The notes below the pieces were generated by a model, which worked only from the letters and a program-made list of their open reading frames with translations, was not told where the DNA came from and did no database searches. Both the position numbers and the translations under genes were made by a program. Below are positions 1-24,940 of a DNA stretch of 64,000 bases, piece by piece. Source of the stretch: Candidatus Krumholzibacteriia bacterium (GTDB lineage Bacteria; Krumholzibacteriota; Krumholzibacteriia; JAJRXK01); assembly GCA_041484665.1 (NCBI GenBank), contig JBGPIA010000003.1, positions 1 through 64,000 on the forward strand, in the 5' to 3' direction. The stretch's first letter is position 1, and every line of letters starts with the position of its first letter.

Positions 1-1368
<1,368 letters not shown>

Positions 1369-1493
1369 CGGAAAGTTTGCCGGCGCTTGCGCGCCTCTTG
1401 CGTATCGCAAAGTTGGCAGACAGCGCACGCCGAGCGAGCGCACGCCTGCACAACCCAATTCTCGGATTCGACGGGTCTTGCGCGCTATTCAAT

Positions 1494-1505
1494 TGTCAAA
1501 GAGCT
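1494..1505 (-). promoter_or_regulatory. boxA antitermination element in rRNA leader
   Basis: AGCTCTTTGACA on minus strand, close to the TGCTCTTTAACA consensus, ~125 nt upstream of 16S. Confidence 0.75.
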
Positions 1506-1577
1506 GGGCCACGCGCCTTGCGCACTCGGCCTTTGCCACCTGGGGTGGCGCGCCCCACGCATTGGAGCGGACTGCAG

Positions 1578-1606
1578 ACGTTAGCCCGACCCGACAACCC
1601 TGTCAA
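1578..1606 (-). promoter_or_regulatory. rrn promoter (P2-like), sigma70 type
   Basis: TTGACA-17 bp-TAACGT. Confidence 0.7.
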
Positions 1607-1680
1607 TGCGAAGTTCAAGCGGAGTTGAGGGTTCTGGATCGCAGCTGGGCAGGGACCCCCCGCCGCTGCAGCGGCACGCA

Positions 1681-1709
1681 TATATAAGCGGTGCAGGGTC
1701 TGACGTCAA
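1681..1709 (-). promoter_or_regulatory. rrn promoter (P1-like), sigma70 type
   Basis: TTGACG-17 bp-TATATA with an upstream T-tract (UP-like). Confidence 0.6.
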
Positions 1710-1934
1710 GTGTCCCACGCAAAAAATCTTGTGATGTCCCCGCCCACCATCCCATCCCGGCCGCAACGGCTGAAGAACCCGGGAGTCCTGGATGTCAACG
1801 GCGCTGGCGCCCGTTCCGCCGGCCGGGCAGCCCCGGGTCGGCCTGAAACTGGCCGCCGCCCATCCCGGCAGGTGACCCGGCCCCGGTCGGGGTTCCGGGC
1901 GGCCGCCGGACGTCCGATCTTCCTTTGAAATCAA

Positions 1935-3176
1935 TCAGTTATCGGCCCGATCGCCCACCACGATCTCACGGAAGCCCCGCTTCCCGGCCTTCAGCAAGTA
2001 GGTCTTTCCGGACGGGAGAGGAAGCAGCGCTTTGGGATCCGTGATGCGCTCACCATCCAGGGAAACGCCTCCCTGCTGGATCAGCCGCCGGGCCTCGCTG
2101 TTGGTGGTGCACAGACCCGACTCCGCGATGACCGAATAGACAGGAACCGGGTCGCCGGGCGGCAGGCGGTACTCGGTCACCGCGGTGGGAGTCTGCTTGC
2201 GGACGAAAATGCGATCGAACTCCGCCTCGGAGCTCGCGGCGGCCTGCGGGCCGTGGTACTGCGCCACGATGTCGGCCGCGAGCTCTCGCTTCAGATGGCT
2301 CGGGTTGACGCTTGGATCCCGCAATCGGGCGCGCATCGCGTCGAGCTCATCCTCCCCCAGGCTGCTCACCAGCTCGAACCAGGCGGGCATCAGGCCGTCG
2401 GGAATCGACATCACCTTGCCGAACATCTCCTGCGGCGCCTCCTGGATGCCGATGGCATTGCCCATGCTCTTGCTCATCTTCTCGACGCCGTCGAGCCCGG
2501 GCAAGAGGGGGAGCGTCAGGACCGTCTGCGGGTGCTGCCCGTATTCCCGCTGGAGCTCGCGGCCGACCAGCAGGTTGAACTTCTGGTCCGTGCCGCCAAT
2601 CTCGACGTCGCTGCGCAGCGCGACGGAGTCGTAGCCCTGGAAAAGCGGGTAGAGGAACTCCTGCAGGCTGATGGGTTGGTTGGTGGTGTAGCGCTTGTGG
2701 AAATCGTCGCGCTCGAGTATGCGCGCCACGGTGGCACGGGCCGCGAGCTGCAGGACGTCCACCGCGCTCAGCTGCGCGGACCACTCGCTATTGAAGCGGA
2801 CCTCGGTCTTGCGCTCGTCGAGGACGCGAAAAACCTGGTGCTTGTACGTTTCGGCGTTGGCCTGCACCTGTTCGCGGGAGAGCATCGGGCGCGTCTCGTT
2901 GCGTCCGGACGGATCGCCGATCATCCCGGTGAAGTCGCCGATGAGGAAGATGACCTGATGGCCGAGGTCCTGGAACTGACGCAGCTTGCGCAGGCTGACG
3001 GTGTGGCCCAGGTGGAGGTCCGGCGACGACGCGTCGAAACCTTCCTTCACGCGCAGCGGAACTCCCGTGCGCAGAGAGTGTTCCAGCTTCTGCTCGAGTT
3101 CCCCCGCCGGAAGCAGTTCGGCCACTCCTCGCATGAGGAGACGAAGCTGCTCGTGCACCTGCTGGCTGACGCTCAC
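1935..3176 (-). CDS. tyrS: Tyrosine--tRNA ligase
   Basis: [18 protein letters not shown]-terminal S4 domain. GTG start at 3176 inferred. Confidence 0.97.
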
Positions 3177-10685: not shown

Positions 10686-11735
10686 CTACACGGAGAAGCG
10701 GAACTCGATCACGTCGCCGTCGGCCACGATGTAGTCCTTGCCCTCCAGCCGCACCGCACCGGCCGCACGCGCCGCCTTCATGTCTCCGTGGCGGCGCAGA
10801 TCGTCGTAGGGGACCACCTCGGCCCGGATGAACCCGCGCTCCAGGTCGCTGTGGATGCAACCCGCTGCGGCCGGCGCGCTCGTCCCGCCCTGGACGGTCC
10901 AGGCGCGGCACTCGTCGGGCCCCACCGTGAGGAACGAGATCAGCCCCAGGCTGGCGTAGGTGGCGCGCAAGAAGCGGTCGCGGGCCGGCTCCGTGAGCCC
11001 CAGGTGCTCCAGGAACGCCGCGCGCTCGCTCTCGTCGAGGTGGGCCAGCTCGGTCTCGATGGGCAGAGCGCATGCGCACAGCTCGTGGCGCGCCCGCGCG
11101 CACGGGTCCGTGAGAACTGCGGGCGGCGGCTGCCCGGCGGCGGCGTCGGCCAGATTGGCGAGCACCACCACGGGCTTGAGCGAGAGGAATTGGTAGCCGC
11201 GCAGCTGCCGCTGCTCCTCGGGGTGGAGCTCCAGGCTGCGTAGGGGTTGCTGTTGCTCAAGATGCGCGCACAGGCGCGCCAGCAGGGGCGCCTGTGACAC
11301 GGCATCCTTGAGGCCCTTCTTGCGGTCGGCGGCGATGCGGGCGAGGCGCCGCTCCACCAGCTCCAGGTCGGCGAGCGCGGTGGCGAGCTCGAATTCCTCC
11401 AGGTCCCCCGCGCCGCCGTTGCGCTCCGCGCGGGTGGCGAAGCGCGGTAGCACCAGCGCCAGGGCGTCGCAGGTGCGCGCCTGTGGGAGAGCAAGCAGGC
11501 CGCTGAGATCGAGCCCGGCGCAGCGTGGATCGCCGCCCAGATCGGCGAAGTCGAGGGTGGCCGGGGTCAACTTGCGCGGGCGGTAGAGCTGCGCCAGCCA
11601 GGTCAGGCGCGGGTCGGGGATGCTGACCACGGCGTCGAACGGGGCCTTGCCCCGGCGCGCCCCTTCGCCGGCCAGCAGCAACGCGAGCAGCGTGCTCTTG
11701 CCCGACTGGGGCTCGCCCACGATCCCGACCTGCAT
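10686..11735 (-). CDS. YchF/Ola1-family protein (atypical) with C-terminal TGS/DUF933 domain
   Basis: GEPQSGKST P-loop, PDPRL..L, AAGCIHSDLERGFIRAEV, RLEGKDYIVADGD. Confidence 0.88.
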   Translation of the reverse strand: MQVGIVGEPQSGKSTLLALLLAGEGARRGKAPFDAVVSIPDPRLTWLAQLYRPRKLTPATLDFADLGGDPRCAGLDLSGLLALPQARTCDALALVLPRFATRAERNGGAGDLEEFELATALADLELVERRLARIAADRKKGLKDAVSQAPLLARLCAHLEQQQPLRSLELHPEEQRQLRGYQFLSLKPVVVLANLADAAAGQPPPAVLTDPCARARHELCACALPIETELAHLDESERAAFLEHLGLTEPARDRFLRATYASLGLISFLTVGPDECRAWTVQGGTSAPAAAGCIHSDLERGFIRAEVVPYDDLRRHGDMKAARAAGAVRLEGKDYIVADGDVIEFRFSV

Positions 11736-11754
11736 GATCGCACCCTCCGGAAAC

Positions 11755-11789
11755 GCACCCACCTCGCGGGACGCCCGCGAGGTGGGTGC
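11755..11789 (-). terminator. 16-bp perfect hairpin between lipoprotein gene and ychF-like gene
   Basis: GCACCCACCTCGCGGG-acg-CCCGCGAGGTGGGTGC, followed by GTTT on minus strand. Confidence 0.6.
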
Positions 11790-12786: not shown

Positions 12787-13284
12787 TCAACTCCCACCGG
12801 GCGCGCCCGGTGGCAGAGCCGCGGCCGTCCGGCCGACCATCCGGCGGGCCACCAACGGATCTGCCTGGACCCACTGACCCGGGGGCCAGGCCGCCGTGCG
12901 CCCGGACTCCTCGCAACGCAACGATGGCACCAGCCACGCCGGGGAGATCTCCAGGCCCGAGACGATCAGCGTGAAGCGCGCCGGCCCTGGGTGATCGGCG
13001 GGCAGCAGCGCCTCCAGCGGCAGCTCGAGGATCGAGGCAGGCTGCACTACGCACTCCTGCTGCCCCAGGCGGCTGCCCTTGGCATCCAGCGCGGTGAGCA
13101 GAACGCGGCGTGGCAGCATGTCGCTGGACAAGAGAGATAGGATCAGTTCCTGGGCGTCGGGGCCGGGCGCCACGACCTCGGCGAGGCCCGGGGACGCCCA
13201 GATCCATACCGACCCGGCCGGGCCCGGGGCGGGCCGCCCTGCCTGCAACAATCCGGCCATCAGCAGGATCACGCCATGCGTCAT
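12787..13284 (-). CDS. Hypothetical protein, possibly exported
   Basis: ATG overlaps the upstream stop (ATGA), GGAG RBS, short hydrophobic N-terminus. Confidence 0.5.
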   Translation of the reverse strand: MTHGVILLMAGLLQAGRPAPGPAGSVWIWASPGLAEVVAPGPDAQELILSLLSSDMLPRRVLLTALDAKGSRLGQQECVVQPASILELPLEALLPADHPGPARFTLIVSGLEISPAWLVPSLRCEESGRTAAWPPGQWVQADPLVARRMVGRTAAALPPGAPGGS

Positions 13285-14260: not shown

Positions 14261-14971
14261 TCAGCCGACCGCGCCGGTGTCGTCGTCGTGGCCCGGCGCC
14301 ATCCCCGGCGCGCCGGCCCGGGGCAGCGGCCGCTCGCGCGGCAGGCGTTCGAGCGCAGCCTGCAGCCCGGCGTGCTCGGGATACTGGCCCTCCCACAGCT
14401 GGTGGAACGTGTTCCAGTGGCGCGGGAGCAGCAGCCCGCCGGTGGCGAACGTGCGGAAGAAGTGGCGCCGCCGCTCCGCCAGGCTCAGCCCGGGCTTGCG
14501 CCGAGCTTTCAGGCGGCCATCCGTCCATACGTCCCAGCAGGCCGCGAATCCGATGACACGATCGCGCGGCACGCGCGCGGGCAAGACCCGGTGGCGCAAC
14601 AGGTCGTCCAGTTGCAGGAGGTTGCGGTGGATCCAGCGGTCGAGCAGGATGCGATCGACGTCGTGCGCCGGGATCTCCCCCAGCTGGTCGGTGGCCAGCG
14701 CCGCGCCCCGGCACCGCATCTCGGTCGACGGCGTGAGCACGTCCAGTGGCGCGCCGTACAGCGACGCGTGCAGGCGGCCCGCAGCGTCGTGCTCGAAATG
14801 CCAGAACCCGCTGCCCTCGAACTCGGGCGCGTCGAAGGCGACGGTCACCCAAGGCAGCGAGCCATGCAATGGAAGGCTGCGAGCCACCGCGTGCACGAGC
14901 TCCGAGATCTCGGCTGCGCGGGGAAACTCTGGCGGAAACACGTCCACGAGCAGCTCGGCCGCCACGGTCAC
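14261..14971 (-). CDS. Hypothetical protein
   Basis: Globular-looking ORF rich in aromatics (HRNLLQLDD, WDVWTDGRL). Start inferred. Confidence 0.65.
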   Translation of the reverse strand: MTVAAELLVDVFPPEFPRAAEISELVHAVARSLPLHGSLPWVTVAFDAPEFEGSGFWHFEHDAAGRLHASLYGAPLDVLTPSTEMRCRGAALATDQLGEIPAHDVDRILLDRWIHRNLLQLDDLLRHRVLPARVPRDRVIGFAACWDVWTDGRLKARRKPGLSLAERRRHFFRTFATGGLLLPRHWNTFHQLWEGQYPEHAGLQAALERLPRERPLPRAGAPGMAPGHDDDTGAVG

Positions 14972-15302: not shown

Positions 15303-15866
15303 CTACTCGCGGTAGAGCGCCTTGACCGCGCCGAAGCTAGCGGACTCCACCGGCACCGCGGTGGTCAGTGTCGCCGTCTGCGGAGTGAGGTCGACCAGCT
15401 GCGGATCGGGGGTTGGACAGGTGGAGAAACGCGGAAGGGTCACGCCGGGCTGCGGCACCGGCCACTTGGACACGGTGATCGCGGCGTTGTTGACCGCCGA
15501 GAAGGCGAGCACCTGGAGCGTGGACACGACCATCACGTCGGTGGAGTTCCACAGCAGCATGCAGTCGGCGAAGCCCATCTGCACGCCGCTCGCGCTGCCC
15601 TGCCCGTTCACGAAATTGCCGGCGAACGTCTCGCCGATCACGATCAGCTCGCTGGGCAGATTGACCTTGTACTCGACGGCCGTCATCTGGTTCTGCACGT
15701 CCGTCATGCAGACGTAGAGGTTGAACGGCGTCGAGGTTCCCTTGGTGGCCGTACTGGTCGTTGCCGCGCTGTCGAAGTAGACGCCGATGTTTCCGGCCTG
15801 GGCAGCCGGGGCGCCCAGCAACAGGGCGAGCGCAGCCAGGGCCGCGATCGTTCTCAAGGACTTCAT
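15303..15866 (-). CDS. Secreted beta-rich (cohesin/Ig-like) protein with C-terminal VPVESASFGAVKALYR motif
   Basis: Sec signal MKSLRT...AQA, IGVYFD, beta-strand pattern, AAGGAG RBS. Confidence 0.85.
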   Translation of the reverse strand: MKSLRTIAALAALALLLGAPAAQAGNIGVYFDSAATTSTATKGTSTPFNLYVCMTDVQNQMTAVEYKVNLPSELIVIGETFAGNFVNGQGSASGVQMGFADCMLLWNSTDVMVVSTLQVLAFSAVNNAAITVSKWPVPQPGVTLPRFSTCPTPDPQLVDLTPQTATLTTAVPVESASFGAVKALYRE

Positions 15867-16114
15867 GGCTGGATCCGCTCCTTGCGCTTCCGCTTGGGTC
15901 CGCGTCACGGGTGGTGCGGGGAGAAGGCGCCCGGCGTTTGCAAACTGCACGCGCGCGGAGCCGCCTCCCTTGGGTTCTGCGTCGCCACGACGGGGACCCG
16001 CGCCCCAGCCGTGACCAGCGTGGGCCGAGCGCATAACACATGCCGGGCGCGCTGCGGGCGGAAAGGCGGCAATTCCTTCCGGGTCGGTCCGCGCGCAGCT
16101 GCGCGGCGAAGCAG

Positions 16115-19100
16115 CTAGAGCAAGCCGGCGAAGGGGTCGACCTCGGAGTAGATGACGGTGAGCTGGTCGGCCGCACGCGACAGCACGCGGTAGTGCCGGT
16201 CGAGCGCCTCATGGCCGGTGCACAGGTGGATCACGTGGTCCAGCTCAGCGCCGGACAGCTCGCCGGGCTTCAGCAGCCACAGGTGGGCTCCCGGCCCCAG
16301 CGGATCGAGCAACGCGCGCGGATCCACCGCGCGCGCGCACGCACGCCACGAGCGCATCCGGTGCTCCGCGAGGTAGAGATCGAGGCGGCTCTGCGCGGCT
16401 CCACTGGCCTGCACGCCCGCCAGCAGGCGCGCGCGGCGCAGTAGGTCGGCGCCCTCCTGCAGCGACGTCCGCTCGCGCAGACGCGGACCCGCCTCGGCCA
16501 GCGCTAACAGCAGCGCGCCCGCACGAGACGCGATGGCCACGGGCTCCCCCCGCTCGTGCGCGGCCAACCACTGCCCCAGGGTCTGGGGGTCCGGCGCGGC
16601 GAGCGGCTCGCCGGCCGACTGCAGCAGCAGCGACGCCAGGGCCCCGCGCGTCGCGTCGTCCAGACCGCGCTCCACGTCGTGCACCAGCAGGGCCGCGAGC
16701 AGCTCCCGAGGTCCGCTCGCCGCGCAGCGCGTCACCTCGCCCGCGAGCCAGACGGCCAAGCCCCGCTCGCGCAGTCCCGCGGCGAGCGCGGACAGATCCT
16801 CGTCGCTGCCCGCCACGATGCCGGTGCGCTGGCGCTGCGCGGCGGAATCGGCGAGCAGCTCGCCGATGATGTCGGCGCAAGCCTGGAGGCTGATCCCGCG
16901 GCGGCGCGTGAGTCGCCCTTTCTCCTTGCGGCGCGTTTGCAGCGCATTGCTGGCGTTGAGCTCGCGCACGAGCAGCGCGGAGCCCGCGCGCGCCAACTCG
17001 CGCGCGAGGCGGAAGCTCTGGCTCTGCCCACGTTCGTGGCGGCCGGTGTGCTGCGGGGGCAAGAGAGCCGGATCTGCGGCCGTCCAGCGCTGCGGCTGCG
17101 TGAAGAGCAGGTCGATGACGGCCAGCTCCTGCTCGTCGAAGGCGTCCGCATCGTCCACCAAGACCACGGGGTAGCGGTCGCGCCAGGCTGCGGCAACATC
17201 GGTCCGCTCCTCGATCCCTCGGCGCGCCAGCGCGCACAGTTCGCTGCGGGGGATGCGACCGGCCGCTTCCCGCGCCGCAGCGGCGCAGCGGCGCAGCAGC
17301 GGGAGGTCCACAGCGGCCGCGTCCTCGCCCGCCGCGGCGGCGAGCAGGACCTCGCCCCCCTCGACCACGCGGCGCAGCTCCACCAGATCGAGCGCCGGTG
17401 CGCGCCCGGCCGCCTGCGCGTAGCGCCGGCACGCGTCGGCGACCAGGCGCTTGCGGATCGACTCCCCTTCCGCGGTGGCCTGCGGGGGGAGCAACCGCGG
17501 CGACGCCCCAGCGTCGCGCGCGCCTGCGCGGTGGCGCAACAATGCCAGCGCGAGCTCCTCCCCCGTGGCGACCTCGGGCCGCGGCGCGGTCGCGCCCTGA
17601 CGGCGCAGCAGCTCCTCGCAGCGCAGCAGGGAAACGCCGCCAGGGACCAGCAGCAGTGCTTCGCCGCCGCCGCCTGCCCCGCGCGCCGCGGAGAGCAGGC
17701 GCGTCGTCTTGCCCGATCCCGGAGCTCCCAGGATCCAGCCGGGCGGCGGCGTATCATCGTGGCGGTGTGTGGCGAACGCCCCCTGCTGCGGCGCCGCCGC
17801 CACGGGAGCGGCGCGGGGCACGGGCCAGGGCGGCAAGGGCAGGGGGATCTCCACCGCCGCGCCGCGCACCGCGGCGAGCCACTCCTCGCTCGCGCGCGCC
17901 GCGGGGCCGACGTCTGCATCGCCGGCGGCAGTGGGCGACGCGGCCGATTCCGGCGGCGCGTCCCCCGCGGCGAGCCCCTCGCGGCGCAGCCAGGCGAAGA
18001 GGGCGCGGCTCGCGCCCGCGGCCCACGGATCCTCCTCGAGCTCATCGGGATCGAGGGAGATGGCAGCGGCGGCATCGAAGCGCATCCCCACGGCCTCGGC
18101 GCGCGTCACCACTGCCGCAGCGCGGCGCCGCGCCGTGGCGAGAGCCTCGGTGCGCGCAGCGCCCTCCAGGTCCTCCAGGCGGGCGCGCCGTCCGGTGCGC
18201 GGGGACGAGGCCCAAGCCTCCACCGCTGCCGCCAGCTGCGCCAGCGGCGGCGTGCGCGCCAAAGCGGCCTGCGGACCCAGGCCGCCCCCCACATCCGCAG
18301 GCGGTCCGGCCGACAGTGCGCGCTCCAGCGCGGCGAGCCCCTCGCGCACCCGGAAGTCGACCTCCAGGCGCGTAGCCGCCCAGCGCCAGGCTTCCGGCGT
18401 AGACGCGCTGCCGACCTCGTGCGGCGCAGCGCCCGCGGGCGCGCGCCGCGCCCACAGGAGCGGGTGGTCCAGCACCGTGAGCGCCCCGCCGGGCCGGCCG
18501 CTCGCCGCGAGCCGTTCGAGCGCCGCGCGCAGATACAGCGGATCCTCCGGCAGCGACGCCAGCACCAGCTCACCCTCTGGGATCGGCCCGGTCCAGAGGT
18601 CTGCCAGCGCCAGGATGCGCACCGAGAAGAGCGGCGTTTGGTGTGCATCTCCCGCCAGGAGCGGCGTGCCGACGAGCGCCGCCGCGTCCACGCCCAACAG
18701 CGATTGCAGCACCTCGCGCTGCGATCGCCCGGGCGCCAGCACCAGCCAGGAACCGCGGGTGGAGCGCTGGCCCAGCCAACGCGCCATCTGGCGCAGAAGC
18801 GTCGCGCGCTGCAGGTCCTCGTCGCGCGCGTCGCCCAGCAACGCCGTCCCGCACCGCACACACGCTGCGTAAGCGTTCGCCACCTGCGCCGGCACCGCGC
18901 ACGCCGGGCAGCGCCAGGGCGGGTCCTGGAGCGCCACCCGCACGACGCGCCAGGCCTGCGTCACCGCGACCGCTGGCGCCACGCTGCGCACCTCGCCGTC
19001 CACGCTCGCCGCCAGCGCGTCGAGCGCGCGCGACTCCCCCTGCGCGTCGAGCAAGCACAACACCAGCGGACCGCGTTCGGCGGGCAGGCCACGCAGGAAC

Positions 19101-22100
19101 GCCAGGGCGCTGCGCTGCGCCTCGTCGAACGCCGGATGCCCGGGCAGCGCCCGATCGGCGTCGGGGACGACCCACGCGACCTGCGTGGCGCGCGCGGCCC
19201 AGGCGCGCACCAGCGGCAGAGCGAGCGCGCGGGCCGGCAGCGCGAGCACTGAAACAGCGCCGGTCTCCGCGTCCAGCAGCGCCCGCTCCAGCGCGCCAGC
19301 CGGATCGGGTAGGGCCAGCGCGCCGGCCGGCAGCTCGCACACTGCCAGGTCAGCCTCCTTCCGCAAGGCGGGCGGTTGATCGTGGACCCATAGCACGCAG
19401 CGCACCCCCAACGGTCCACCGTCGCCGGCCTCTTTGGCCAGCCGCGCCAGCAGGCCGCACAGCAGCACGCGCTCGGCATCGCTGGCACCGCCCAGCGCGA
19501 CGCGCATCCCGCGCGTCAGGTCGTGCAGGGCGCGCGCGAGCGCGTGGAGGCGCTGTGGGTCGGGCGGGTCGGCCTGGGCCAGCAAACGCCACGTGGCCGT
19601 CAGACGCTGCGCGTCCACCGGACACCGCCAGCGCGGGAGCTTGCGTGCGCCCATGCCATCCAGCAGCCGCGAGCCGGTGGCGGCCCCCAGCGGATCCGTC
19701 GCTGGAGACTGCGCAGGCGCCAAGCGCGGCGCGCCGCCGACCAGGCGCGCCAGGCGCGGATCGACGCAGGCGACCATGCGCTGCGCGTGTGTGGCCGCCA
19801 GCGCCAACCGCAGCACCGCGACGCCGTCGGGGAGCGCTCCGGGTGCGCCCAGCAGGGGCACGACCACGACCTCCGCCGACGGCGTGGGAGCGGCTCCCGC
19901 AAGCGGCGCCGCCCGTGCGAGCTCGCCCAGCAACGCCTCGCCGTCGGCCAGCGGCGCAAGCCACAGGCGGGCCTGCTTCGTGCGGGACAACCAGGCGGCC
20001 GCGCGCAGGCGCGCCAGCACGAGCGCCTCCTCCGACACCAGCAGCGCGCCCGGCTCGAATCCCGGCGGGCAGAGCACGACGGCGGGCGCCGACGCGCCCC
20101 GCAGCGTCACCGTCCGCAGCGCGCGGCGCGAAGCGAGCACGATCGAGAGCTGCACGGCCAGCAGATCTCCGGCGGCGGCCGCGTCCGCGCACACCACGGC
20201 CGACGGCGCGGCGGCAATCCACCGCACCAGGTCCTCCCACGCGCTCCGCGCGCCGGCGTCGTCCTGCACCGCGATCCAGCGCGGCAGATCGTCCACCACG
20301 AGCGCGCGCCCGGTCGGCGCGAGCGTGGCGTGCGGGCCCACCTGGATCCAGATGCTGCCCGCCGCGGCCCGCTCGTGGAGCTGCGCGTCGAAGCATCCGC
20401 CCGCTTCGCGCAGCCGACAGGCGGGTGTGCAGCCCTTGTACGCCGCCGCCAGGGCCGACGCCACCTGATCGTCCTGCGTCCGGTCGCCGGAGCCCGGCAG
20501 CCAGCGCGCGAGATCGCCTTCCGGACAGGTGGCGAGCGCGTGGTAGAGACGCAGCACATCCACCGCCCGCGCCGGGGTCGCCAAGGCCTCCTGGATCCAG
20601 AGGTCCAGTAGCGCGAGCAGCGGCTCGGCGCAGCTCGGCGAGGTGGGCGCCAGCGTGACGTCGCGCGGTGCGGTCGCGCCAGCCGCCGCGGCGGCCACGG
20701 CCATGCCGCGCTCGGCGTTGCCGGCGATCACTACGCAGGGGGCAGTGCGCACGGCGAGCGCGGCCAGCTGCTCGGGCGAGACCGCTCCGAGCAGGAGCGC
20801 GTCGCGGTCGGCGGTGGCAGGCACTGGCGCCAGCGCGCCGCGCTGCGGCCAGCGGCGCAGCGCCAGGTGCGGCCACGCGAGCGGGACGACCAGCTCCACA
20901 CGCTGGAGCTCGTGCGCAGCGTGCGGCGGATCCGGCTGCTGTGCGCGGCCCAGGACGCGCAGCGCCGCAGCCAGGCCCGCCGCCGCGGCCAGCCCGGCGC
21001 GTCCCAGCGTCTCCAGGTTGGCGATCCCCCACGCGGACCCCAGCGGCTCGGCCTGCGCGAGTCCGCCCAGGCGCGGGCCCAGCGTCCGCGCGCTCTCGAT
21101 CAGCGGCGCCCACGGCGCGACGAGCGCGTCGGCCGCCGTGAACGCGGGATGCGGCGCGACGGCCGGGGCGGGCGCCACCACCGACGGCGTGGCCAGCGCC
21201 GCCTCCAGCGCCCCCAGGGCCACCACCGCTCGGTCCCCCAGCAGCGATCGCAGGTCTTCGGGCGGCTCGGTGACGCACAGCACGACCGCGTCCGGGTCGA
21301 GCCAGCTGTCGATCTCACTGCGCGCGGCCACCGGCCCGAGCGCGAGCCCGGCAGCTCCGGCGCCGGGATCCGCGGCGACACCCGCGGCGGTGCGCTGCAG
21401 CAGCAAAGCGTCGCACGGAGCGGTGCGCTCCAGGCGGAGCAGCGCCAGGCGCCCCCCGTGGCCTTGGTCCCCGCCATTCCACGCGAGCGCGGCGAGCCCA
21501 CCCTGGAGCGCGGGGGGACGCCGACGGCGCAGCAGCGCCTGGAGTTCCGCAGGCGGCCACGCGGCGCCGAGCCGGTGGGCCAGCGGGGCCAGCTGGCGCA
21601 GACGCTGCTCGCTCGCCGCCGGTACGGCCAGCCGGTCCTCGTTGCAGGACAGCCCCGCGACCCATCGCAGCATCGCCAGCGCCGCGTCCGATCCAGGCGC
21701 CTCCTGCAGCGCGAGAAGGCCCAGCGCCAGGGCGGCGGGAGCGCCATCGGCGCGCAGCAGGCTGAGCCGTGCCGCCAGGCCCAACGCCTGCCAGCGCTGC
21801 GGGTGACCCGCGGGCAGCCCCGGCTCCGTGAGCCGCGCGATGCACCACGGCGCCAGCGCCGTCAGGTCGGGCGCTGCCTCGTCCAGCCGGGAGCGAGCCC
21901 AGCTCGCCAGCCAGACCAGGTCCTCGGTCTGCTCCGGCCGCAGGTCGTGGAGCAGATCGGGATCGGCGGCCGTCAGATGGCGCCCGCAGGCGTGCAGGTA
22001 CGCGCGAGCCATCGGCCAGGCCAGCGCGGCGGGCAGTCGGAAGCTGCTCCCGTGGCGGTGCAGCAACAGCAGCTGCGCGAGCCGCGCCAACTCATCGAGG

Positions 22101-22411
22101 CCCAGCGCGTCCCAGCGACCCCGGACGCGGGTCGTCGCCTCCTGCAGGCGCAGGTCGGTGGCCTGCTCGAGATCGGAGGCGAGCTGCGCTGCGCGGTAGC
22201 TGAACGCTGGCCCCGCCGGCTCCTCGCTGGGGCCGGTGACCAACCGGCGCGCCCAGCGCACCACGGGCTCCACGGCCTTCTCGGCGATCGCGGCGCGCAG
22301 GTGCGAGCGGTCGTGCTCGTGGTGCGCCCGCGCGAGGAGGCGCTCGGTGGCCAGCAGCTCACCGGCGGCGAGCCGGCGCCGCGCTTCCTCCAACAGCGAC
22401 CAGTAGCTCAT
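16115..22411 (-). CDS. 2098-aa multidomain protein with degenerate DinG-like and RecQ-like modules and a C-terminal UvrD-like module
   Basis: Uninterrupted 6.3-kb ORF 33 nt after leuS; GAPGSGKTT, LVDDADAF, GAELDHV, YRVLSRA; Cys cluster; CPAC...CVRC. Confidence 0.8.
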   Translation of the reverse strand: MSYWSLLEEARRRLAAGELLATERLLARAHHEHDRSHLRAAIAEKAVEPVVRWARRLVTGPSEEPAGPAFSYRAAQLASDLEQATDLRLQEATTRVRGRWDALGLDELARLAQLLLLHRHGSSFRLPAALAWPMARAYLHACGRHLTAADPDLLHDLRPEQTEDLVWLASWARSRLDEAAPDLTALAPWCIARLTEPGLPAGHPQRWQALGLAARLSLLRADGAPAALALGLLALQEAPGSDAALAMLRWVAGLSCNEDRLAVPAASEQRLRQLAPLAHRLGAAWPPAELQALLRRRRPPALQGGLAALAWNGGDQGHGGRLALLRLERTAPCDALLLQRTAAGVAADPGAGAAGLALGPVAARSEIDSWLDPDAVVLCVTEPPEDLRSLLGDRAVVALGALEAALATPSVVAPAPAVAPHPAFTAADALVAPWAPLIESARTLGPRLGGLAQAEPLGSAWGIANLETLGRAGLAAAAGLAAALRVLGRAQQPDPPHAAHELQRVELVVPLAWPHLALRRWPQRGALAPVPATADRDALLLGAVSPEQLAALAVRTAPCVVIAGNAERGMAVAAAAAGATAPRDVTLAPTSPSCAEPLLALLDLWIQEALATPARAVDVLRLYHALATCPEGDLARWLPGSGDRTQDDQVASALAAAYKGCTPACRLREAGGCFDAQLHERAAAGSIWIQVGPHATLAPTGRALVVDDLPRWIAVQDDAGARSAWEDLVRWIAAAPSAVVCADAAAAGDLLAVQLSIVLASRRALRTVTLRGASAPAVVLCPPGFEPGALLVSEEALVLARLRAAAWLSRTKQARLWLAPLADGEALLGELARAAPLAGAAPTPSAEVVVVPLLGAPGALPDGVAVLRLALAATHAQRMVACVDPRLARLVGGAPRLAPAQSPATDPLGAATGSRLLDGMGARKLPRWRCPVDAQRLTATWRLLAQADPPDPQRLHALARALHDLTRGMRVALGGASDAERVLLCGLLARLAKEAGDGGPLGVRCVLWVHDQPPALRKEADLAVCELPAGALALPDPAGALERALLDAETGAVSVLALPARALALPLVRAWAARATQVAWVVPDADRALPGHPAFDEAQRSALAFLRGLPAERGPLVLCLLDAQGESRALDALAASVDGEVRSVAPAVAVTQAWRVVRVALQDPPWRCPACAVPAQVANAYAACVRCGTALLGDARDEDLQRATLLRQMARWLGQRSTRGSWLVLAPGRSQREVLQSLLGVDAAALVGTPLLAGDAHQTPLFSVRILALADLWTGPIPEGELVLASLPEDPLYLRAALERLAASGRPGGALTVLDHPLLWARRAPAGAAPHEVGSASTPEAWRWAATRLEVDFRVREGLAALERALSAGPPADVGGGLGPQAALARTPPLAQLAAAVEAWASSPRTGRRARLEDLEGAARTEALATARRRAAAVVTRAEAVGMRFDAAAAISLDPDELEEDPWAAGASRALFAWLRREGLAAGDAPPESAASPTAAGDADVGPAARASEEWLAAVRGAAVEIPLPLPPWPVPRAAPVAAAPQQGAFATHRHDDTPPPGWILGAPGSGKTTRLLSAARGAGGGGEALLLVPGGVSLLRCEELLRRQGATAPRPEVATGEELALALLRHRAGARDAGASPRLLPPQATAEGESIRKRLVADACRRYAQAAGRAPALDLVELRRVVEGGEVLLAAAAGEDAAAVDLPLLRRCAAAAREAAGRIPRSELCALARRGIEERTDVAAAWRDRYPVVLVDDADAFDEQELAVIDLLFTQPQRWTAADPALLPPQHTGRHERGQSQSFRLARELARAGSALLVRELNASNALQTRRKEKGRLTRRRGISLQACADIIGELLADSAAQRQRTGIVAGSDEDLSALAAGLRERGLAVWLAGEVTRCAASGPRELLAALLVHDVERGLDDATRGALASLLLQSAGEPLAAPDPQTLGQWLAAHERGEPVAIASRAGALLLALAEAGPRLRERTSLQEGADLLRRARLLAGVQASGAAQSRLDLYLAEHRMRSWRACARAVDPRALLDPLGPGAHLWLLKPGELSGAELDHVIHLCTGHEALDRHYRVLSRAADQLTVIYSEVDPFAGLL

Positions 22412-22444: not shown

Positions 22445-24940
22445 CTACGCGACGACGATGTTGACCAACTTGTCGGGAACGACAACGACTTTGACCACCG
22501 CTTTGCCCGCGATCCAGGTGGGCACCTTGCCGTACGCGCGGGCGAGGGCGGCGAGCTGTTCGCGGTCGGTGCCACGCGCGACGTGCATCTGCTCGCGCAC
22601 CTTGCCGTTGACCTGCACCACAACGGTCACCTCGTCGCGCTGCAGCACCGCCTCGTCCCACGCGGGCCACGCTTCGTCGAACACACTGCCCGCGTGCCCC
22701 AGCATCTCCCACAGCTCCTCGCCCAGGTGTGGTGCGAAGGGCGCCAACACGCGCACCCAGTCCTGCACGATCTCCAGCGCCGCAGGACCCCATTGCTGCG
22801 GCGAGCGCTCCGCGGCACAAGCGTGAAGCTGGTTGGTGAGCTCCATGTGGCGCGCGATCGCCGTGTTGAACTGGAAGCGGTCGAGATCGAGCGTGCCGCC
22901 CTTCACGGAGCGGTGCCGAACGAAGCGCAGCTGTGCAAAGGTGGCGTCGGCCGCAGCATCGCGCCGCGTGCGCGCGCCGCGCAAACGCTCCTGATGCTCT
23001 TCCACGAAGCGGTGCACGCGCGCCAGGTAGCGGGCGATCCCGTGGATGCCCGAGTCGTCCCAGTCGCCGCCGTCGATGAACGCGAAGCCGAACATCAGGT
23101 ACATCCGCAGGGCGTCGCTGCCGTAGGTGTCCAGGTACGCCTCGGGGCTGACTACATTGCCGCGGCTCTTGCTCATGCGGGCGCCCTGGTGCGTGATCAC
23201 GCCCTGGTGACGCAGGCAGGCGAAAGGCTCGTCGAAGGACACGTGCCCCAGCCGGTGGAGCACCTTGGCAACGAAGCGGGCGTACAGCAGGTGCATTACG
23301 GCATGATCGGCGCCGCCCACGTACTGCGTCACGGGCAGCCAGGCGTCAGCCAGCGCACGGTCCCACGGAACGTCAGGGCGGTGCGGGGACAGGTAGCGCA
23401 GGTAATACCAGCTGGAGTCCACGAAGGTGTCCATGGTGTCGGTCTCGCGTTGTGCAGGGCCGCCGCAGCGCGGGCAATCCACCTTCGACCAGTTCGGGTG
23501 GCGACGCAGCGGGCTCTCGCCTGTGGGCATGAACTCCGCGTCATCGGGCAGCAGCACCGGGAGCTGCTCCATCGGCACGGCCACCTCGCCGCACCGCGCG
23601 CAGTGCACGATGGGGATCGGTGCTCCCCAGTAGCGCTGCCGGCTCACCAGCCAGTCGCGGAGGCGGTAATTGACGGTGGCCCCTCCGTGCCCCCATTGGC
23701 GCAGGTACTCGACGACGCGCTCGCGGGCCACCGGCCCATCCAGCCCGTCAAACTCGCCGCTGTTGCACGTGGGCCCGTCCTGCGTCCACGCGACCGGCAA
23801 CGGCTCCGTTGGATCGTCGCCCGGGCCGAGGATCACCCGGCGGATCGGCAGCCCGAACCGCGTGGCGAACTCGAAGTCGCGCTGGTCGTGGCCGGGGACG
23901 GCCATCACGGCCCCCGTGCCGTAGGTGGAGAGCACATAGTCGGCGATCCAGATGGGAATGCGTTCGCCGTTGACCGGGTTGAGGGCGTACGCGCCGGTGA
24001 AGACGCCCGACTTCTCCCGCGTGGTCGAGGTGCGGTCGATCTCGCTGAGGCGCGACGCCTGTTCCACGTAGCCCTGCACCTGCACGCGCTGCGACGCGGC
24101 GCCGAGCTGGGGCACCAGCGGGTGCTCGGGCGCCAGCACCATGTAGGTGACGCCGAAGATCGTGTCGGGACGGGTCGTGAAGATGGGCAGCGTGCGGTCC
24201 ACGTCGGCGTCGGATGCTAGCGAATCCTCCGTCACGCTGAAGTTCACCAGCGCTCCCTCGCTGCGGCCGATCCAGTTGCGCTGCATGGTGACGGTCTTCT
24301 GGGGCCAATCGATGCGTGAGAGGCCCTCCAGCAGATCGTCGGCGAAGGCGGTGATACGGAAGAACCACTGGACCAGCTCGCGGCGTCGCACCGGGGTCGA
24401 GCAGCGCTCGCACAGCCCGTCGTGCACCTGCTCGTTGGCCAGCACCGTCTGGCAACTGTCGCACCAGTTGACGGGCGCCTGCTTGCGGTAGGCGTAGCCC
24501 GCCTCGTAGAGGACCAGGAACAGCCACTGGGTCCACCTGTAGTAGTCGGGCTTGTGGGTCTGCAGCTCATGGGACCAGTCGTACATGCCACCCAGGGTCT
24601 GCAGTTGCTTGCGCATGTACTCGATGTTCTTCTCGGTGTGCACCCGCGGGTGGACCTTCATCTTGATCGCGTAGTTCTCCGCCGGCAGACCGAAGCTGTC
24701 GAACCCCATCGGCTGGAAGACGTGGTCGCCGCGCATGCGCCGGTAGCGGGCCCAAGTGTCCGTGGGGGCGTAGTTGAACCAGTGCCCCAGGTGCAGCTTG
24801 TCGCCGGAGGGGTAGCTGAACATCACCAGGCAGTAACAGCGCCCGCCCCCCTCGTCGCGCAGCCGGGCCCGGTGCGCCCCGGATTGCTCCCAGCGCGCCT
24901 GCCACTTGCGCTCGAGGGAATGTGGCTGATAGCCCCCCAT
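22445..24940 (-). CDS. leuS: Leucine--tRNA ligase
   Basis: MFSYPSGDKLHLGH, FTTRPDT, GTGAVMAVPGHD, SRQRYWG, RMSKS, VQVNGK. Confidence 0.98.
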   Translation of the reverse strand: MGGYQPHSLERKWQARWEQSGAHRARLRDEGGGRCYCLVMFSYPSGDKLHLGHWFNYAPTDTWARYRRMRGDHVFQPMGFDSFGLPAENYAIKMKVHPRVHTEKNIEYMRKQLQTLGGMYDWSHELQTHKPDYYRWTQWLFLVLYEAGYAYRKQAPVNWCDSCQTVLANEQVHDGLCERCSTPVRRRELVQWFFRITAFADDLLEGLSRIDWPQKTVTMQRNWIGRSEGALVNFSVTEDSLASDADVDRTLPIFTTRPDTIFGVTYMVLAPEHPLVPQLGAASQRVQVQGYVEQASRLSEIDRTSTTREKSGVFTGAYALNPVNGERIPIWIADYVLSTYGTGAVMAVPGHDQRDFEFATRFGLPIRRVILGPGDDPTEPLPVAWTQDGPTCNSGEFDGLDGPVARERVVEYLRQWGHGGATVNYRLRDWLVSRQRYWGAPIPIVHCARCGEVAVPMEQLPVLLPDDAEFMPTGESPLRRHPNWSKVDCPRCGGPAQRETDTMDTFVDSSWYYLRYLSPHRPDVPWDRALADAWLPVTQYVGGADHAVMHLLYARFVAKVLHRLGHVSFDEPFACLRHQGVITHQGARMSKSRGNVVSPEAYLDTYGSDALRMYLMFGFAFIDGGDWDDSGIHGIARYLARVHRFVEEHQERLRGARTRRDAAADATFAQLRFVRHRSVKGGTLDLDRFQFNTAIARHMELTNQLHACAAERSPQQWGPAALEIVQDWVRVLAPFAPHLGEELWEMLGHAGSVFDEAWPAWDEAVLQRDEVTVVVQVNGKVREQMHVARGTDREQLAALARAYGKVPTWIAGKAVVKVVVVPDKLVNIVVA

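Follow-up and report, generated by a model that had tools for sequence, protein, structure and literature searches.

Helicase folds that have lost their motor function have so far been known singly and beside an active motor, as in AddB and RecC. AddB is reported to keep only the Walker A motif and to recognise Chi DNA through its dead UvrD fold (PMC3321194). The DinG protein of S. aureus is reported to be an active nuclease and ATPase from which the Fe-S cluster has been lost (PMC3270479). Here we analysed a window of 64,000 nucleotides from a Krumholzibacteriia bacterium (contig JBGPIA010000003.1), in which one chain of 2098 residues unites a nuclease fold with three helicase folds drawn from two superfamilies, all apparently dead. 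About 6 kb of coding sequence is kept in 86/87 genomes of two families, and such retention suggests a core role that depends on the shapes of these enzymes, not on their chemistry.

A conserved giant gene outside the family databases

The 2098-aa reading frame is a real gene. As the preliminary description had it, the frame is uninterrupted, lies on the same strand as leuS and starts 33 nt past the leuS stop codon. Its GC content at the three codon positions is 0.83/0.58/0.90; the third-position value equals that of leuS (0.895) and ranges from 0.87 to 0.93 along the gene. A promoter scan returned one site, at 12790, and none upstream of the giant gene. The product is nearly invisible by sequence alone and is covered by no Pfam, NCBIfam or PADLOC family, in line with the earlier proposal that it belongs to no named family: the Pfam scan gave a single faint UvrD match (E 0.021), the NCBIfam and PADLOC scans gave none, and a PDB sequence search with the protein and three profiles returned nothing below E 0.02. 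No description of the protein was found in the literature searched, which was mostly open-access. Since these databases are blind to it, other proteins of this kind may lie unrecognised among genes annotated as large and hypothetical.

Within the class, orthologues are present in 9/9 genomes of the window's family and in 77/78 of a second family (the titles of homologues name Krumholzibacteriota), with hosts known from metagenome assemblies. None was found when 81 genomes from other families of the class were searched, and 19 trmD loci from those families contain no giant-type gene. The gene is under purifying selection in both families that carry it: dN/dS is 0.09-0.23 in five pairs and 0.06-0.35 for every segment in four pairs. 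A decaying pseudogene, or a chance frame in GC-rich DNA, might be suspected from the composition (77% GC, with 21% alanine in the protein) and from the near absence of family matches, but this idea is refuted by conservation and selection. Full-length frames are open in dozens of genomes with dN/dS well below 1, as had been anticipated, and the folds are predicted with confidence (pLDDT 85.5 and 74.1).

Folds of repair enzymes without their catalytic residues

In the predicted structures the chain opens with helical repeats, which are followed by a DEDD-exonuclease fold and then by three helicase cores: a DinG-like one that is shortened, a RecQ one into which a zinc ribbon is inserted, and finally a UvrD-like one (Table 1). 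The colinear exonuclease, DinG, RecQ and UvrD architecture first read by eye from motifs is thus supported, the DinG and exonuclease parts more weakly, and 11/11 of the motifs quoted at that stage are present, including GAPGSGKTT at 17702-17728. The suspected catalytic degeneracy is likewise supported, in that the catalytic motifs of the exonuclease, DinG and RecQ parts have been lost and the UvrD part has no Asp-Glu pair. Fold matches were obtained, the homologues are neither fragmented nor neutrally evolving and the architecture belongs to no named family, each the opposite of what the preliminary description had listed as grounds for abandoning its proposal. Profile identity between the two families is about 22%.

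Table 1. Features of the giant gene and its neighbours in the window.
Feature	Positions	Strand	Basis or state
Gene for 2098-aa multi-pseudohelicase	16115..22411	-	ORF without internal stop; full-length homologues
All-helical repeat (TPR-like) domain, aa 1-300	21512..22411	-	All helix in model, pLDDT mostly 85-96
DEDD-type exonuclease fold without acidic residues, aa 303-453	21053..21505	-	Structure comparison
Shortened DinG-like SF2 core, aa 525-905	19697..20839	-	No Walker A or motif VI; DD at Walker B
Cys594, 661, 665, 673 at DinG Fe-S ligand positions	20393..20632	-	Register with DinG; own family only
RecQ-like SF2 core, aa 931-1325	18437..19621	-	No Walker A, Walker B or motif VI
CxxC-x12-CxxC zinc ribbon, start of second RecQ lobe	18851..18910	-	18/19 own-family sequences
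Helical insert, possibly winged helix, aa 1326-1545	17777..18436	-	Secondary structure
UvrD-like SF1 core, aa 1550-2098	16115..17764	-	Walker A intact here (17702-17728); no catalytic Glu or motif III Gln; motif VI Arg retained
leuS, directly upstream in this genome	22445..24940	-	Not a constant partner
About 210-aa gene after giant gene, both families; candidate partner	14261..14960	-	Co-distribution and position

The N-terminal repeats gave weak TPR matches in Foldseek (E 0.012-0.03) and have the highest mean column identity among six segments (0.53). The exonuclease-like module of the model aligns with 4hec_A over 121 residues (Z 9.3, rmsd 3.7), which identifies an RNase H-like fold, and the S. 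aureus exonuclease-DinG structure 9ii8 aligns to the model from residue 301. His421 is kept in 20/20 sequences; of the acidic metal ligands of Exo I, no D-x-E was found in the first strand in 19 sequences.

DinG is the weakest fold assignment in the modelled protein. The SF2 fold itself is clear, and the earlier DinG call holds in so far as the alignments to DinG are the longest (316-362 residues) and DinG takes 5 of the top 10 Foldseek rows, at E 3e-3 or worse; it falters on the Z scores for DinG (10-10.8), which are tied with those of DEAD-box proteins. Profile matches to the DinG-like core have P values of 9e-4 and 2e-4. Walker A is found in 0/20 sequences, DD replaces DE in 20/20 such that the Walker B Glu occurs in 0/20, and QxxGRxxR is absent. 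The four cysteines at the Fe-S positions, after motif Ia, are kept in the window's family (20/20, 20/21, 20/21 and 21/21) and missing from the second-family consensus. About 70 residues separate Walker B from lobe 2, whereas in active exonuclease-DinG-RecQ fusions the Arch segment runs to about 230, and this spacing would leave no room for an Arch domain; no segment of the giant protein matches the Arch segment of those fusions. The resident DinG of the host matches the Fe-S region equally well, which weakens the case for descent from those fusions. An origin by duplication of that gene was rejected, the by-eye likeness of the exonuclease-like part being unsupported (P 0.6).

The RecQ assignment is firmer. 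Matches to WRN and RECQL5 have E values of 6e-8 to 4e-7, the RecQ family fills the top 14 structural rows (Z 16.8-15.6, the first DEAD-box protein following at 14.7), which places the module with RecQ cores, and the core profile matches with P 4e-5. The Walker B Asp is nevertheless found in 0/19 sequences, there is no GKS and motif VI is absent. Zinc-ribbon matches for the CxxC-x12-CxxC insert are weak (E 0.11 or worse), as is the match, over 20 columns (P 0.032), between the helical insert that follows the core and the insert of the active fusions; against RQC it scores P 0.042, with no Pfam match to the RecQ zinc-binding/RQC domain.

A nucleotide site that looks retained for binding

The UvrD-like module matches UvrD/Rep with E 1e-11 over about 640 columns and the whole four-subdomain length, an SF1A fold, and its ESM Atlas features agree with UvrD/PcrA/Rep at 0.90; the overall rmsd to these proteins is about 30 A, so that the subdomain orientation of the model is not comparable. 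The intact Walker A noticed in the window's copy is there, but it is a minority state: the Lys is kept in 7/18 sequences of its own family and 1/30 of the second, where 28/30 have Arg, and the P-loop is missing in 4/18 own-family sequences. The Walker B Asp-Glu pair occurs in 0/19 and 0/30. The catalytic Glu is found in 0/19 of the own family; the second family has Glu at this position in 28/30 sequences and the Walker B Asp in 0/30. The motif VI Arg is kept in 17/19 and 27/30, respectively. Conservation in the second family is strongest at positions that include a non-canonical motif after UvrD motif III.

These residues bear on whether the protein is one slow motor, in which the UvrD module hydrolyses ATP through non-canonical residues while the rest of the chain serves as a passive guide. 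The window's copy does keep its P-loop, motif IV Arg1801 and motif VI Arg2079, and most second-family sequences keep their Glu. We consider such a motor improbable, given the absence of the Asp-Glu pair from all sequences compared, the loss of most Walker A lysines or their replacement by Arg and the absence of the motif III Gln in 19/19 own-family sequences. Close orthologues differ at the Walker A Lys, which argues against selection on hydrolysis. Different Walker residues have been lost in each family while a glycine-rich P-loop and the motif VI Arg have mostly been kept: this is the pattern of a binding site, not of a motor.

We favour, at a probability of roughly 0.45, a non-catalytic nucleic-acid-binding scaffold that is vertically inherited and whose UvrD module, by analogy with AddB, would bind nucleotide without hydrolysis. 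An ancestral exonuclease-DinG-RecQ-type fusion may have gained a UvrD module and N-terminal repeats and then lost catalysis, presumably because the enzymatic work falls to separate, active UvrD/PcrA, DinG and AddAB; such counterparts are encoded elsewhere in the host genome. The retained folds would hold on to nucleic acid that is single-stranded or branched, such as forks and D- or R-loops, without translocating, the UvrD module would act as an allosteric latch and the helical repeats would recruit partner proteins, with a structural role for the zinc ribbon and for the Fe-S cluster predicted in the window's family. Counting against this reading are the neutral net charge of the protein (222 K+R versus 229 D+E), the P-loops missing from some own-family sequences and the absence of an adjacent active helicase or nuclease gene. 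Among the DNA-contact motifs, UvrD motif Ia, the motif III loop and the RecQ aromatic loop are also eroded relative to their canonical forms.

A fixed locus with a candidate partner

The locus is constant: trmD-rnhB precede the giant gene, and a small gene, a lipoprotein gene and mgsA come after it. The linkage to leuS holds in this genome but not generally, leuS lying directly upstream in 7/10 own-family genomes and 11/29 scorable second-family loci (18/39 in total), and a constant leuS operon is rejected. The gene of about 210 aa is found in 9/9 own-family and 88/91 second-family genomes and in 0/107 of the class's other families. It has no Pfam match, and four weak matches outside the class have no giant gene adjoining within the DNA examined; an Atlas cluster points to a homologue in Eisenbacteria. 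A complex prediction with the repeats, the UvrD module and this neighbour scored 0.00 and is uninformative.

This co-distribution, which may reflect shared ancestry only, would fit a pure protein scaffold, in which the dead folds do no more than give a lineage-specific complex, perhaps one that includes the 210-aa neighbour, a rigid platform of several lobes, and nucleic acid is untouched. Eroded DNA-contact motifs, low identity between the families, conserved positions that are mostly Trp, Pro, Gly, Leu and Arg, and the non-canonical conserved motif of the UvrD module all fit it too, and the Utp25 pseudohelicase is a reported precedent (PMC9539457). We regard a scaffold of this kind as rather unlikely: the recognisable modules are all nucleic-acid enzyme folds, about 50 full-length sequences retain every one of them and conserved Arg clusters persist.

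Surfaces kept while catalysis is lost would also be explained by a phage-defence decoy sensor, a chain that mimics four host repair enzymes, traps phage inhibitors of helicases or nucleases and signals via its repeats or the small neighbour. The giant gene does evolve faster than leuS (dN/dS 0.09-0.23 against 0.07-0.10), and one homologue weakly matches PADLOC mad8 (E 3e-5) and GajB. Those matches arose in 1/5 family members scanned and reflect the UvrD fold only. With a single copy at a fixed housekeeping locus, near-universal retention and no effector domain, the gene is unlike defence genes, and we doubt that it is such a sensor.

More broadly, the protein could represent a new class of core bacterial machine, in which four fossil DNA-repair enzymes in one chain read the structure of nucleic acid at several sites or act as a decoy for inhibitors of those enzymes, gated by a non-hydrolysed nucleotide and, in one family, an Fe-S cluster, with a dedicated 210-aa partner and a clade-defining distribution; we put this forward only tentatively. 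As a binding scaffold or otherwise, the giant protein offers a natural experiment on the roles of DinG, RecQ and UvrD folds apart from unwinding.

Comparison with known systems

As a by-product, the search brought to light many exonuclease-DinG-RecQ fusions in other phyla, a large and intact family on which no paper was found in the literature searched. It comprises 19 proteins plus about 100 further clusters, whose sole annotation is 'RecQ family helicase', with Ktedonobacteria and Pyrinomonadaceae as the named sources. These fusions share the module order of the giant protein, the matching segment being the best of ten for 6/7 segments. They differ in that their catalytic motifs are all intact, a short N-terminus replaces the 300-aa repeats and RecQ zinc/RQC ends are present. 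The preliminary description knew of no protein that combines these folds; two of the three junctions have precedents in these fusions, and what stands is that none was found with UvrD, in 19 proteins and in 120 of 295 rows, a weak absence since each search scored only 8000 candidates.

Descent of the giant protein from such an active fusion is weakly supported by profile comparison. Matches are colinear but weak (P 9e-4, 4e-5 and 0.03-0.15, with 0.14 for the linker), and the second-family profile reaches P 0.08 at best. A profile of residues 300-1370 searched against 1.84 billion representatives gave 17 matches, all from the window's family, with no active helicase and no active fusion among them. 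Nor was an intact ancestor found within the class, where DinG (53/61 genomes) and RecQ (19/61) matches sit in ordinary genes; two odd RecQ frames were inspected and are unrelated to the giant gene.

Bacillota exonuclease-DinG (S. aureus DinG, PDB 9ii8/8zef; TIGR01407) likewise has an exonuclease fold followed by a DinG core, and 540 residues align with residues 301-912 of the model. The giant protein has lost the nuclease and ATPase residues, retains Fe-S cysteines in its own family and continues into RecQ and UvrD modules. With the RecQ catalytic core (1oyw, 4q48, 5lst) it shares the two-lobe fold (Z 16.5-16.8, rmsd 4.4-4.7, 341-354 residues), without Walker A, Walker B or motif VI and with a zinc ribbon inserted in lobe 2. 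Relative to UvrD/PcrA/Rep, it has lost the catalytic pair and motif III.

A further parallel is with AddB and RecC, inactivated subunits of AddAB and RecBCD in which a UvrD fold likewise lacks the helicase motifs; the Foldseek matches include AddB and AdnA. Unlike AddB, the giant gene has no active helicase or nuclease gene among its neighbours, PF12705 matches of the host sit on other contigs and the host's AddAB-type pair is encoded elsewhere. The giant protein also differs in having no C-terminal PD-(D/E)xK nuclease, and it carries three extra dead modules in front of the UvrD fold.

Reality and range of the giant gene

The giant gene reads without an internal stop, and its third-position GC of 0.895 equals that of leuS, a codon bias as in a real gene. 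Its preliminary description as an uninterrupted frame 33 nt past leuS was correct, and all 11 motifs quoted there were located in the protein. Pfam returned a single faint UvrD match (E 0.021), and no match was obtained in NCBIfam, PADLOC or PDB sequences. The gene is single-copy in its genome. A protein search found six full-length homologues at 37–50% identity, Candidatus Krumholzibacteriota being named for one of the proteins and for five of the six loci.

Within the window's own family (f1), a profile search placed the gene in 9/9 genomes, whole on one contig in seven and broken at contig ends in two; in the split copy of genome G002 the first piece terminates in a stop close to the contig end. 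A second family of the class (f2) carries counterparts of 2,000–2,300 aa, reached through weak terminal matches; an alignment between the f1 and f2 proteins spans 1781 columns with probability 100. The f2 profile was positive in 60/61 f2 genomes in one survey and in 77/78 in another, whose stricter filter makes its counts lower bounds and which detected none in 313 genomes belonging to neither f1 nor f2. Among the remaining families of the class, the f1 profile was positive in 0/40 genomes and the f2 profile in 0/81. Residues 300–1370, searched against 1.84 billion representatives, gave 17 matches, every one to the same protein family. An unrooted two-gene tree sets f1 together with f2 apart from the rest (bootstrap 77).

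Nei–Gojobori dN/dS values, which are rough owing to GC bias and saturation, were 0.09–0.23 in five f1 pairs (leuS, 0.07–0.10 in four of these) and 0.11–0.45 in four f2 pairs (tryptophanase, 0.08–0.27), and stayed below 0.35 in all segments of the four pairs divided by segment. With purifying values and frames kept in related genomes, the decaying pseudogene contemplated at the outset has become extremely improbable: judged by these comparisons, the gene is evolving faster than its housekeeping neighbours, yet is not in decay.

Architecture and loss of catalytic residues

Fold models were obtained for residues 1–930 (pLDDT 85.5, pTM 0.76) and 931–2098 (pLDDT 74.1, pTM 0.43). Of the colinear exonuclease, DinG, RecQ and UvrD folds proposed from sequence, the RecQ and UvrD folds were recovered clearly and DinG less sharply, its Z score being level with that of DEAD-box proteins and every Foldseek E value ≥1e-3. 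The S. aureus exonuclease-DinG structure aligned over 540 residues (model 301 to 912), and residues 525–905 are assigned to DinG partly because four cysteines fall where two independent DinG profiles (P 9e-4 and 2e-4) have their Fe-S ligands. The Arch domain appears, from spacing, to be deleted. A zinc ribbon is inserted in the RecQ-like part in 18/19 f1 sequences. Fe-S cysteines are absent from the f2 sequences, which have six highly conserved histidines at that place, a possible different metal site.

Coordinates of the giant gene, its predicted domains and other features
Feature	Position	Strand	Observation
Giant gene	window 16115-22411	-	2098 codons
leuS	window 22445-24940	-	directly upstream of the giant gene
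Helical repeats	aa 1-300		weak TPR matches
DEDD-type exonuclease fold	aa 303-453		4hec (which we take to be the DEDD nuclease Rv2179c): Z 9.3, rmsd 3.7, 121 residues
SF2 core, DinG-like	aa 525-905		longest alignments with DinG structures
RecQ-like core	aa 931-1325		top 14 rows all RecQ proteins, Z 16.8-15.6; first DEAD-box 14.7
UvrD-like module	aa 1550-2098		E 1e-11
Secreted-looking f1 protein	window 15303-15869	-	small, beta-rich, no family match; between giant and small genes in 8/8 f1 loci reaching that far
Small gene	window 14261-14960	-	210-aa product, by eye presumably like a degenerate zincin; unnamed Atlas clusters from Eisenbacteria and Actinomycetota lie close to it
YchF-like gene	window 10686-11762	-	C-terminal match strong, GTPase match weak (E 0.017); same locus in several f1 genomes
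Low-GC end	window 1-2000		GC 60%, against ~71% over the remaining window
Resident DinG (L078)	G000:C2:425674-428421	-	~200-aa N-terminal region without family match, differing between f1 and f2
RecQ joined behind nuclease-like region	L076:5362-9345	+	1328 aa; defence-like by eye
RqlH-like RecQ	L077:47-5880	-	close to an ATPase gene; defence-like by eye

Motifs were scored in 22 f1 sequences (28 minus six near-duplicates), fragments being omitted from each f1 count, and in 30 f2 sequences, with the canonical motifs, as generally known and as found in the active proteins compared here, for reference. In f1 the exonuclease acidic residues are absent and His421 of that fold is retained (20/20). 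The DinG-like core has lost Walker A and motif VI, with DD replacing DE in 20/20, and the RecQ-like core has lost Walker A, Walker B and motif VI. The f1 UvrD Walker A (n=18) has Lys in seven sequences, Arg in seven and no P-loop in four; the catalytic Glu is found in 0/19, the motif IV Arg in 12/19 and the motif VI Arg in 17/19. Its f2 equivalent has Arg in 28/30 and Lys in 1/30 at Walker A, has lost the Walker B Asp in 30/30, and retains the Glu in 28/30 and the motif VI Arg in 27/30. One residual motor, for which the UvrD-like module keeps some of these residues, is unlikely; no complete ATPase site occurs among the f1 and f2 sequences scored, and the catalytic degeneracy first read by eye is upheld.

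Genomic neighbourhood

The giant gene lies downstream of trmD-rnhB and upstream of the small gene, a predicted lipoprotein gene and mgsA. Directly upstream, leuS occurs in 7/10 f1 genomes and 11/29 f2 loci (two unscorable loci excluded), so the pairing with leuS is not constant. The leuS genes adjoining the giant gene are 56–70% identical to the window copy and those elsewhere in the class 46–53%; the two types inside both families suggest replacement or differential loss. The small gene is present in 9/9 f1, 88/91 f2 and 0/107 genomes of other families, a co-distribution that shared ancestry alone could explain. Usually a tryptophanase (f2) or the secreted-looking protein (f1) is encoded between the two, and in genomes G101 and G126 they are ~70 nt apart. 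Two distant relatives of the small gene sit near molybdopterin oxidoreductase genes.

Active counterparts and possible origin

Elsewhere the window's genome (G000; 94% complete) encodes an intact DinG, a UvrD/PcrA and a pair of the AddAB type. A search at E 1e-40 detected no gene of the RecQ family in it. Long relatives of the resident DinG include 19 intact fusions of DinG with RecQ, in 17 of which Pfam recognises an exonuclease, and a profile search added ~100 fusion clusters of roughly 1,800 aa, the named members of which come from Ktedonobacteria and Pyrinomonadaceae; among the matches listed, UvrD appears for none. These intact HTH-like/exonuclease-DinG-RecQ proteins (P0032-P0050 and P0066-P0167; ~1,800 aa) are labelled only RecQ in the database and unite a 5'-3' type motor, a 3'-5' type motor and a nuclease in one chain; PF14528 is additionally listed in two. 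When the giant protein was compared with them by segment, the corresponding part ranked first of ten for 6/7 segments, but only two of these matches are significant, any DinG or RecQ would give these two, and the linker and insert match weakly. The giant protein may plausibly derive from a fusion of this kind, or its modules may have fused independently.

Mode of action and known systems

We favour, at a probability of about 45%, a non-catalytic nucleic-acid-binding scaffold. Against this reading stand the eroded DNA-contact motifs, the neutral net charge and the lack of a motor gene in the neighbourhood. A pure protein scaffold is less probable, and a decoy for defence is unlikely. The closest precedent for the nucleic-acid-binding scaffold is AddB, whose UvrD fold keeps Walker A alone of the helicase motifs, binds nucleotide and recognises Chi (PMC3321194). 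S. aureus DinG represents the opposite fate for an exonuclease-DinG fusion (PMC3270479), and PMC5512222 concerns different multidomain proteins.

No description of either the giant protein or the DinG-RecQ fusions turned up in the full-text, mostly open-access literature covered. The individual parts and the pseudohelicase concept are already known; as far as tested, a core protein that occurs throughout a clade and carries four dead modules has not been described. The giant protein lacks defining features of DinG, RecQ, UvrD, DEDD nucleases and AddB/RecC, and its mode of action would at best resemble that of AddB/RecC.
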